Source of the DNA: Candidatus Aenigmatarchaeota archaeon
GTDB lineage: Archaea > Aenigmatarchaeota > Aenigmatarchaeia > QMZP01 > QMZT01
Reading direction: 5' to 3'
Length of the DNA stretch: 64,000 nucleotides
NCBI GenBank assembly: GCA_963726265.1
Contig: CAVSBQ010000002.1
Coordinates: forward strand, 640,001 to 704,000
Each line of letters starts with the position of its first letter. Positions within the stretch are counted from its first letter, which is position 1. Below, piece by piece: positions 39,001-42,000 of the stretch. A program made the position numbers.

Positions 39001-42000
39001 TCCCTTCCTCCGGGCCGATTCTCATCACCGCCGCATTCAGAAACCTGCTTATTGTTATGTCGCCTATTCTCGCCTTTTCGCCAACCCTTTCACCGAAGCT
39101 GGACCTCTCCCTGTCGGTAAGCATCTTTGCAAGGCTCATGCTGTCGGCAAGGCCTGCGAACTTTCCCCTACCATCGATTATGGGTATTCTGCTGGCGCCG
39201 GTGTCCCTCATGACGGACGTGATCGTCAGGAGCGTGTCATTGATGCTGGCGCAATAAGGCATCTGCATGATGTCCTTCGCTTTTTTGCCTGCAAAAACCT
39301 CTTTCTTGACGAAGCCGAGCAGCTTGGGTTTCGTGATGACGTATATTTTGCCCTCCTTTTCGACAGGCACGGACCTGAACTCGCTGACCAGCATGTAATT
39401 CATTATGTCCTCGACTGGCGTTTCAACGGAAAACATGCTCACGGGCTTCATGAAGTATGCTATCTTCATTTTCTGCGGCTCGCTCACCCTCCTTTTGAGC
39501 ATGTCGTCCAGCGTTACTATACCCTTCAGCTCGCCGTCGAAAATGAAGGCTTCATATTTTTTGTCCTCGGTCATCCGTGACGTGACGTGAGAAAGGGTGT
39601 CATCTGGCTTGACTAAGAACGCGCTTTCAAGAACGTCTTCGAGTTTCATGAGATCACAAGCCGCTTTTGCCGATCCTTTGCATTTCCTTCGTTATGTAGC
39701 CAGCGACTATGTTCCTTATTTTCTTCGATTTTATGTCCTTCAGCTTTCCCAGAGCTTCCTTGTTCTTCTCGAAATCAGTCGTGAACTTGTCGCTGTGGTC
39801 GCGTATCAGCTGGTCTCCGAGCGCCTTGACGGGGATGTTTTTTATCCTTCCCATATTTCCACCTTCGCAATATTACTTATTCCCACCAATGTATATTTAA
39901 AACATTGTTAACTGGAACTGGCCCAGGACAGAGAATATGGTGTAGCCTATAACTATCAACACTATGCTGTGCTTGAAGCCGGCAATAAGCGAGCCTTCTG
40001 CCATTTTCCCCGTGGCCAGGCCGGCAAAAAGGCCCTGGACGAGGATGAAGTTCACGAAGGTCTGGTTGTATATCTCGACCGGAGCCGTCTGGGTTACGGC
40101 CTCCTCCATGAGGCTGGGCGACATCTGCATGCTGCCAAGCGTCGGGATAAGGAAGGATTTCAGGATAAGCAGGATGAAGATGAAAACGAAGAATATCATG
40201 TATGACGTGACAAGCTGGGACTGGACCGACGCCGAGCGCTCCTGCCGTATTTTGTTTATCTCCACAAGCGACTGGCCTATGGCCTTGAGCGTTTCCGATA
40301 TCTTGCCACCGACCTTGTAGGTTTCTATTATCGTGCTCACGGACCTTTTTATCGGCGTGGACCTTACCTTATCCGAAAATATGTTCAGCGCCTTCTCGAA
40401 GGGTATGCCCCACTCCACCTTGCTTTCCAGCTCCCTTATGTATCCGGACATGGACCTGTAATCCCTCCTGGAAACGTGTTTCAGCGCGATGGGCAGGGTC
40501 ATGCCTGAGTCGATCGCCTCTGTCAAGTCGGTTATGAATATGATGAACTGCTCTTCTACTTCCTTGCTTACCCTGTATTTGCCGTAAAAAAGCAGGAACG
40601 GCGGGACAATCGCTATCATCGCACCGAGCACGTTCAGCAGCGGCACCACAAAAGGCAAGAAGGCCGAAACCACGAAGAAGTTGATGAGCAGTATCACTAT
40701 CCCTATAAACACGAAAAATATTTCGAATAACAGGACCTTGTTTATTTCCATTCTACACACCGGGATACGTCACGTGGATGAACACCAGGAAGGCGGTGTT
40801 CATGAAGGGCAGCATGACCCATGTTATCAGCAGTATGACCTCGTCTATCGTAAGGCCCATCACGCTGCCGCCTATTATGCTCATCGTCGCCAGCATCGAC
40901 AGCATCATCAGCGGCGCTGCGACGAGCAGCGCCGTGTAAATGTCGGCGTATGTTGAAAGCGTCTTGAGGTATTTCTCCCTTTTTATTTTGTAATCGAAGA
41001 GCGCCCTTTCCGACATCTCGTGGAGGTATGCCGTCATGTCGCCTCCGGATTCTACGGCCGAGACCATGCCAAGCAGGAGCTCCCTGAAGCCTTTCGATGG
41101 CGTGCGCTCCGCGATGTCCCTTAACGCGTCGACAGAGCTCATGCCGAAGGTCTTTATGTTTCTCATTATGAGCCTGGAGTCCTCGGATATTTCGCCGTAT
41201 TCCTTGAAGCCCGTGAGCAGCTCGAACATGTATTCCGTCGGTATGCCCGACGAGGCGATGGCCGACATGTGGGTTATCGCGAAAGGAAGGTTGTTTTCTA
41301 TCGAGTTCTCCCTGGAGCGCTCCTTCTCGACCGGGTACAGGTAAAAAAATATGAAGACTATGGACGAGACGAAGACTGGAAAAAATATTATGCTGAATAT
41401 GTAGATGTAGAACTCGACTTTTATGAAATAGCTGAGCAGCACGTATGTGGCTGCGAACGCGGCTGCGAACGCGACGGCCGTCGAGAAAAAGAGCATGCTG
41501 ACCCATGTCTTGAGCAGGATTTTCATGTTGGCGTTCTTGATGTGCGGCTCGAGCGGCCTGAAGGAACCGATATACTTCTCCACCAAACCCCCGAACAGAA
41601 CCAGTGAAATTTTCCTGTAAAAGGACGGCATATTAAAATATTGGCCTCGCATATAAAAAGCGACCGCCGCTTGAACAAAGAGCAGGGAGCACGCTTGCGG
41701 TAGACCTTGCAAAAAACCGAAAGTTATCCGTTCTGCCTTCTCCACCCTGCTACCCTGCAAGCACTATCATCATAGCTTAGGGCTGCTGTCTTCCGACCCT
41801 GACCCGGTTCACCCTGAGGACAATCCTGCAGGACAAGGCTTCGCAGTTGGCAGAAAGGGCTTTGCGGCATCTTGCCGGGCCATCCGCAAACTACAACCGG
41901 CCATGAAGACCGTCTGCCACCCGAAGGTACGGTAGGCCTAGCCCCGTGGTTGGAGGCCCCCTGCATTATTAATCCGAATGCGTGTATTTAAATATATAAC

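Follow-up and report, generated by a model that had tools for sequence, protein, structure and literature searches.

A signal recognition particle RNA without helix 6 in an archaeal genome without a detected SRP19 gene

New proteins are brought to the membrane by the signal recognition particle (SRP); its RNA carries an Alu domain with a role at the ribosome, and helix 6 of this RNA, together with the protein SRP19, is the feature usually taken to unite archaeal and eukaryotic particles against the bacterial ones. What particle, then, is encoded by an archaeal genome in which the SRP RNA seems to pass directly from helix 5 into helix 8 and no SRP19 gene is found, and how did this state arise? 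In SRPs of the canonical archaeal and eukaryotic kind, both helix 6 and helix 8 have their tetraloops bound by SRP19, and it is the asymmetric loop of helix 8 on which helix 6 packs (PMC5807370; PMC2905702); an adenosine clamp between these two helices is considered likely in all of the archaeal and eukaryotic SRP RNAs, and SRP19 was present in all of the archaeal subgroups known in 2010 (PMC2905702). The locus considered here lies in a stretch of 64,000 nucleotides (hereafter the window) of a Candidatus Aenigmatarchaeota archaeon, whose genome (1.13 Mb in 4 contigs) is 88% complete. The nearest labelled relatives of a protein from the window bear the names Aenigmarchaeota or Aenigmatarchaeota, and the genome is treated here as a member of this DPANN phylum.

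An Rfam search of the whole genome returned a single SRP RNA match, the position of which coincides exactly with that of the initial annotation (Table 1). The archaeal model RF01857 (Archaea_SRP) aligns from its position 1 to 317 with 108 bits (E 6e-25), above the gathering threshold of 96.5, and in this alignment helix 6, which takes up 40 positions of the model, is represented by 2 nt, as had been reported, and by a four-column gap. When folded by itself, the RNA adopts a single rod without branches between helix 5 and the GGAA loop (z –3.57), and none of 200 shuffled sequences is equally stable. The parts by which an archaeal SRP RNA is recognized are present, namely helix 1, an Alu domain with its loop-loop pairing, and a helix 8 with asymmetric loop, CAGG/AGCA symmetric loop and GNRA tetraloop; the GNAR-capped helix 6 of the canonical archaeal particle is absent. 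The Alu domain and helix 8 had been described as kept, and in fact the four aligned loop-loop pairs are standard in 88–89 of 89 RNAs, with two-sided changes among them, and the helix 8 loops are intact. The TATA-like motif, recognized by its sequence, recurs at the equal position in four relatives of the same genus; for transcription and SRP54 binding in cells, this motif and the covariation described below are indirect indications. The extension of the downstream FlaJ/TadC-like gene to 41760 proposed by an ORF finder, which would overlap the SRP RNA, is probably non-coding. As a separate observation, the small UUCG hairpin is seen in the subgroup of this genome, where the UGUNR turn is altered and helix 4 is apparently shortened with the loop-loop pairing still present.

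Table 1. Features at the SRP RNA locus; positions count from the first nucleotide of the window.
Feature	Position	Strand	Remarks
SRP (7S-type) RNA gene	41683..41963	minus	281 nt; no helix 6, no intron; RF01857 match and fold
Terminal helix 1	41964 with 41682	minus	possible one-pair G-C extension, from the flanks
TATA-like box TTTAAATA	41985..41992	minus	22–29 nt upstream of the SRP RNA; sequence match
Alu loop-loop pairing	41907..41939	minus	helix 3 loop 41939–41936 with helix 4 loop 41910–41907
Small UUCG hairpin	41919..41928	minus	at UGUNR turn/start of helix 4; unaligned by Rfam
Helix 6 branch position of other archaea	41815..41816	minus	here 2 bases within a continuous helix 5/8a stem
Helix 8 SRP54-binding unit	41777..41810	minus	comprises the three loops listed below
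Helix 8 asymmetric loop	41810–41806 opposite 41779–41777	minus	GAACC opposite UAA
Helix 8 symmetric loop	41801–41798 opposite 41787–41784	minus	CAGG opposite AGCA
Helix 8 tetraloop	41794–41791	minus	GGAA
FlaJ/TadC-like membrane protein	40753..41631	minus	downstream neighbour; matches below curated cut-offs
Membrane-anchored Lon-like (S16) protease domain protein	42069..42845	plus	divergent upstream neighbour; matches below curated cut-offs

The extent of the absence was followed through a spacing measure, the number of bases from a conserved helix 5 motif to the symmetric loop of helix 8 in a joint alignment, which was read in 128 RNAs: 56 from the same order, 36 from other orders of Aenigmatarchaeota and 36 from a second, Woesearchaeota-containing phylum. 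SRP RNA had been claimed for 35 of 36 genomes of the order; it is common there indeed, being found in 56 of 61 genomes, and none of these RNAs, all of which were read, has room for helix 6 once intron-like inserts are set aside. For the other orders of Aenigmatarchaeota, 36 of 107 RNAs were read, comprising the 20 best-scoring and 16 picked for their length, and the remaining ones were judged by length alone (≤285 nt). The second phylum is represented by 34 of its 95 matching genomes, the Woesearchaeota record included, by further loci that are long or partial and by one Nanoarchaeia locus; most of its remaining SRP RNAs measure 263–278 nt. The DPANN sample thus consists of two phyla, with cluster 1 (Micrarchaeota, Iainarchaeota, Altiarchaeota) and Undinarchaeota outside this reading of helix 6. 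Within it, the spacing is 32–34 nt in 125 of the 128 RNAs, and the three outliers (65, 76 and 118 nt) come to 33 once inserts of 32, 43 and 85 nt are removed; in the order itself it is 33 nt in 54 of 56, the other two, with the inserts of 32 and 43 nt, returning to 33 after removal. The control phylum, made up of 43 genomes around a Thermoproteota record and presumably the Korarchaeota of GTDB, gave 71–75 nt in 28 of the 30 SRP RNA loci read, with one value of 144 and one of 33. The value of 144 belongs to a locus (L335:1501-1884, genome G642) where 73 nt that repeat a portion of helix 6 are inserted at its loop; this insert may be a duplication, an intron or an assembly error.

The unbranched stem is also visible in the pattern of substitutions. 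Across 30 aligned S domains, which include kin and hence are not independent, 91.7% of the cells specified by the unbranched structure are paired and 30 of the 36 pairs show two-sided changes; none of 500 shuffles reaches this level and slid controls pair at 36–48%. The same stem emerges from a consensus fold computed independently for 89 S domains free of introns. Its sequence changes while its pairing and its length stay the same, which speaks for a maintained structure and against an artefact of assembly or alignment; the initial statement that helix 5 runs straight into helix 8 is borne out by fold, covariation and spacing alike. Candidates for a concealed or independent counterpart were considered. 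For the longer RNAs, a concealed helix 6 was rejected: in an alignment of 18 RNAs of the order (295–397 nt) and 13 others, the extra bases are inserts at scattered sites. The 43-nt insert of genome G019 lies near the branch point and is similar to helix 6 in length, but by eye it has no GNAR-capped long stem; its geometry is that of a 4/4 central helix and two bulges of 3 nt, and it is absent from a genome of the same genus and is read from its sequence as a putative intron. The control-phylum RNA with a spacing of 33 nt (L341:1501-1775, G649:C15; 275 nt), in a genome without SRP19, was rejected as a second loss outside DPANN: because it sits on a 3-kb contig, in a genome without a match to SRP54 or FtsY, beside a DnaG whose labelled relatives are mostly DPANN-named (the other neighbours being a tRNA and a phosphoribosyltransferase), it probably represents a contig that was binned wrongly and stems from a DPANN lineage with poor sampling. 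Finally, 13 of the 56 SRP RNA matches of the order fall below the Rfam cut-off; the missing helix lowers the scores, so that the SRP RNA genes of such archaea are under-annotated.

The initial annotation had also reported that SRP19 is missing, and this is upheld. The Pfam profile PF01922 has no match at E ≤ 10 in the genome of the window and passes its cut-off in 0 of 301 genomes of the same phylum, 0 of 301 of the second phylum and 31 of 43 of the control phylum. Because Sulfolobus, one of the controls, escaped this Pfam search, broader SRP19 profiles were built from 150 representatives. The one made of 111 sequences gives 47 bits to the chain 3ktw_A, listed as Sulfolobus solfataricus in a table of PMC2905702, and 59–60 bits to human SRP19 chains; at E ≤ 0.05 it matches 8 of 301 and 2 of 251 genomes of the two phyla, all below 19 bits, against chance expectations of about 15 and 13. 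The caveat that a very divergent SRP19 might have been overlooked is thus much weakened, given that a profile able to detect the Sulfolobus chain produced matches at chance level only. An unfiltered HMMER search of the 19,719 stop-to-stop frames of the window's genome reached a best SRP19 E value of 2.7, compared with 1.1 for reversed frames. All of the weak matches are under the cut-off, several of them with internal stops; the best (L375), which is the one that was inspected, sits in a glycosyltransferase-like frame.

Gene neighbourhood gives the same picture: by a pattern test, a frame resembling rps8e occurs in 28 of 30 SRP19 loci of the control phylum, whereas in the phylum of the window, where 46 of 46 genomes have rps8e, the gene that follows it varies and 30 of 30 rps8e loci read are free of any SRP19-like frame. 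As this genome is 88% complete, the case for the absence of the gene rests on its relatives, and here a published table reaches further. Supplementary Data 25 of PMC13473441 (2026) gives SRP19 (arCOG01217) a value of 0% in each of the 12 DPANN groups, among them Altiarchaeota and Undinarchaeota, which are less reduced, and 0% in Hadarchaeota; in seven non-DPANN groups it is found in 91–100% of the genomes, and SRP54 and FtsY are at 86–100% in the 12 DPANN groups. Neither trait is therefore limited to the order, as had been supposed: the RNA layout holds across Aenigmatarchaeota and a second DPANN phylum, and the missing gene across DPANN. In the control phylum, 11 of the 43 genomes (G617–G622 and G647–G651) have no match to the SRP54 M domain or to SRP19, 10 of these 11 have no SRP RNA match and 5 of 5 tested have no match to a full-length SRP-type GTPase; the pattern may reflect the loss of the entire SRP/FtsY pathway in a clade.

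How would a particle without these two parts work? Archaeal SRP RNA binds SRP54 in the absence of SRP19, and the SRP19 gene can be deleted in Haloferax (PMC2905702), so that its loss is tolerable. Where helix 6 is missing, SRP19 has nothing left to clamp, and we infer a particle of RNA and SRP54 alone, which would assemble like that of bacterial Ffh: by analogy, the M domain of SRP54 would bind both helix 8 loops directly, without an SRP19 step or a helix 6/8 clamp, and the RNA-only Alu domain would reach the factor site of the ribosome. With neither helix 6 nor SRP19 covering it any more, the tetraloop of helix 8 might then be available for an electrostatic tethering of FtsY like that in E. 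coli. In bacteria, a free GNRA loop tethers FtsY through K399, R402 and K406 (PMC6781444). The positions equivalent to K399 and R402 are K and R, respectively, in 50 of 50 FtsY proteins of the order, with a variable neighbouring position, and the equivalent of K406 falls at a gap or a proline in their alignment. Because K399 and R402 have equivalents also in FtsY chains of Pyrococcus and Sulfolobus type, from organisms with helix 6, and because of the state of K406, the data permit such a tether, and a bacterial-type contact between tetraloop and FtsY in DPANN, of the kind by which the loop accelerates SRP-FtsY assembly in bacteria, is offered here as a hypothesis.

The loop itself varies. UGAC, the one frequent non-GNRA loop of the order (12 of 48 intact helix 8 loops), belongs to the URRC class, a widespread alternative tetraloop of bacteria (PMC4091067), which fits a helix 8 loop under a bacterial-type constraint; in the control phylum, 29 of 29 RNAs with helix 6 have GGAA. 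On a tree of 95 RNAs, built with the stem of the loop left out, UGAC requires 7 changes, of which at least 3 are forced by branches well supported in a bootstrap that had not yet converged. Accordingly UGAC, observed at L020, L025, L027–L030, L032, L033, L037, L038, L044, L049, L257 and L300–L302, was gained or reverted several times within DPANN. A covariation of the K399/R402 equivalents with UGAC loops was looked for and discarded, the FtsY residues being unchanged in 10 of 10.

The long SRP RNAs of the relatives deserve a comment of their own, as they contain candidate introns, i.e. inserts of 16–120 nt whose sequence can adopt a bulge-helix-bulge (BHB) geometry. A total of 41 inserts, spread over 31 RNAs, were compared; at a best-scoring cut the central helix is perfect over 4 bp in 27 of them, against about 4 by chance, in a set that includes repeated kin and several alignment gaps of 9–12 nt that are probably not introns. 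They occur in the helix 8 tetraloop, in the symmetric loop, just 3′ of helix 8, in helix 5 and in the Alu domain; some of the genes are interrupted by two or three inserts, and their removal restores the conserved sequence (L007:1501-1847, L031, L037, L040, L041, L045, L046, L048, L049, L051, L052, L054, L293, L295, L296, L298, L300–L302, L304 and L310). In the genus of the window, 2 of 5 genomes have an insert in the helix 8 tetraloop, and the gene of the window has none. A tRNA splicing endonuclease is encoded in the genome. Loci that the earlier motif had failed to read have now been read, and UGAC tetraloops and intron-like inserts explain the failures.

The likeness of this S domain to that of bacteria lies in its shape only, since sequence and partners are archaeal. 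The RNA has the layout of the long bacterial SRP RNAs, an Alu domain followed by an unbranched helix 5-8; this layout had been described as the bacterial one minus helix 6, but helix 6 is absent from the consensus of RF01854, the long bacterial model, and the two are simply the same. Thus the initial 'bacterial-like' description stands as regards the topology of the S domain. A bacterial long SRP RNA that replaced the archaeal gene by horizontal transfer, making SRP19 redundant, would account for the shape, and 116 of 120 loci retrieved with a 34-letter helix 8 pattern from DPANN RNAs carry no archaeal label. However, this pattern, including the GAACC/UAA asymmetric loop, is found in an archaeon with helix 6 as well (L136), so that the loop is discarded as a bacterial signature and the pattern is no sign of transfer. 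In five DPANN RNAs, that of the window first, RF01857 and RF01854 give 108 and 51, 184 and 100, 176 and 77, 181 and 110, and 172 and 84 bits. The window's RNA is below the 60-bit cut-off of the bacterial model, and although the other four exceed it, the archaeal model is higher in 5 of 5, by 57–99 bits, despite the penalty for the missing helix. The proteins are archaeal too: both an SRP54 with M domain and an FtsY were found in the genome, as had been noted, the former with 375 bits to the archaeal chain 3ndb against 237–281 for the best Ffh-type chains, the latter with 229–285 bits to archaeal chains against about 166–169 for bacterial ones. Transfer therefore appears highly improbable. Assembly might still involve an SRP19 that has diverged strongly, or some protein unrelated to it, a suspicion that the Pfam search that missed Sulfolobus, its lossy first pass and an incomplete genome could raise; this too we consider improbable, as the binding site of SRP19, helix 6, is itself absent and, in searches aimed at SRP19 and not at unrelated partners, the profile that does detect Sulfolobus finds fewer matches than chance would, all of them weak.

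The explanation that we favour, and regard as probable, is that the gene of the window is a functional, vertically inherited archaeal SRP RNA and that the DPANN lineage gave up both helix 6 and SRP19 on its stem or close to it, leaving a particle with SRP54 only. By themselves, the spacing, covariation and SRP19 data do not separate loss from retention, or tell the order of the two losses; the direction is taken from the published archaeal root. Of the initial claim that RNA helix and protein were lost together across the order, the joint absence stands, with a wider scope, and the direction and sequence of events are inferred. PMC13473441 places the root at or near Euryarchaeota, with DPANN as sister to TACK and Asgard, and its Supplementary Data 25 gives for SRP19 a presence probability of 1 in the archaeal ancestor and in that of TACK, Asgard and DPANN, and of 0.3 in the DPANN ancestor; being computed under the Euryarchaeota root, this reconstruction is not independent of that disputed root. 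Under such a root, the absence would probably be a shared loss and a character in support of a DPANN clade. It could instead be that DPANN retained a long RNA without helix 6 and without SRP19, inherited by bacteria and archaea alike, and that both parts arose once, on the branch leading to the other archaea and eukaryotes. The topology shared with the long bacterial model, with a nearly equal stem length, the lack of any remnant of helix 6, the spacing fixed at 32–33 nt across two phyla and the zero SRP19 even in the less reduced DPANN groups would all follow from this, and a DPANN root is one of the three hypotheses under debate (PMC13473441). Yet a three-way junction that had cleanly shed one of its branches would look identical, the zero of Hadarchaeota suggests that the SRP19 gene can be lost, and the favoured root speaks for loss (PMC13473441); retention is, in our view, an unlikely account.

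No description of an archaeal SRP RNA without helix 6 was found in full-text searches, the scope of which leaves out most subscription papers. In the parts of the publications that bear on it, SRP RNA is reported in nanohaloarchaea without comment on helix 6 (PMC10266531) and SRP19 is treated as conserved in archaea (PMC6098224); the absence of SRP19 is already in print as a row of the table mentioned above (PMC13473441), in whose main text a text search finds no mention of SRP. The joint absence of helix 6 and SRP19 contradicts a textbook generalisation and represents a lineage-wide variant of a housekeeping ribonucleoprotein. A junction of fixed length in two large DPANN phyla is a discrete structural character, independent of substitution models, which bears on the monophyly of DPANN and on the archaeal root either as a shared loss or as a retained ancestral state. 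If retention, against our expectation, were true, the DPANN particle, with one protein and a long RNA that has an Alu domain, would preserve a form shared with bacteria that predates helix 6 and SRP19; these would have been invented once by all other archaea together with eukaryotes, and would mark structurally a root that separates DPANN from them. Furthermore, a natural two-component archaeal SRP would make it possible to see what helix 6 and SRP19 add to the particle, and whether the tether between tetraloop and FtsY returns when they are gone.

Compared with the canonical archaeal SRP (RF01857; Methanocaldococcus jannaschii and Archaeoglobus fulgidus; PMC2905702), the particle of the window shares helix 1, the Alu loop-loop pairing, the long helix 5, the helix 8 loops with the GGAA tetraloop, archaeal SRP54 and FtsY and the best-scoring Rfam model, and differs in being without helix 6, the helix 6/8 adenosine clamp and SRP19. 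With the long bacterial SRP RNA (RF01854, Bacillota-type) and Ffh it has in common the Alu domain, the unbranched helix 5-8, a length of about 270 nt, the GAAC/UAA asymmetric loop, a GNRA or URRC tetraloop and the lack of SRP19, whereas the helix 5 motifs of DPANN follow the archaeal model and the relatives carry inserts that resemble tRNA-type introns. The permuted and circularised SRP RNA of Thermoproteus (PMC4731332) is also an unusual archaeal SRP RNA; however, Thermoproteus keeps helix 6 and SRP19, and the gene of the window is collinear and intron-free. An ancestral SRP RNA gene with simple BHB introns has been proposed (PMC4731332), and relatives of the genome studied here appear to carry such introns. 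The closest functional parallel is the SRP19 deletion strain of Haloferax volcanii (PMC2905702), likewise an archaeal SRP that works without SRP19, but in that strain the deletion was made in the laboratory and helix 6 is kept, whereas in DPANN both are naturally absent across lineages.
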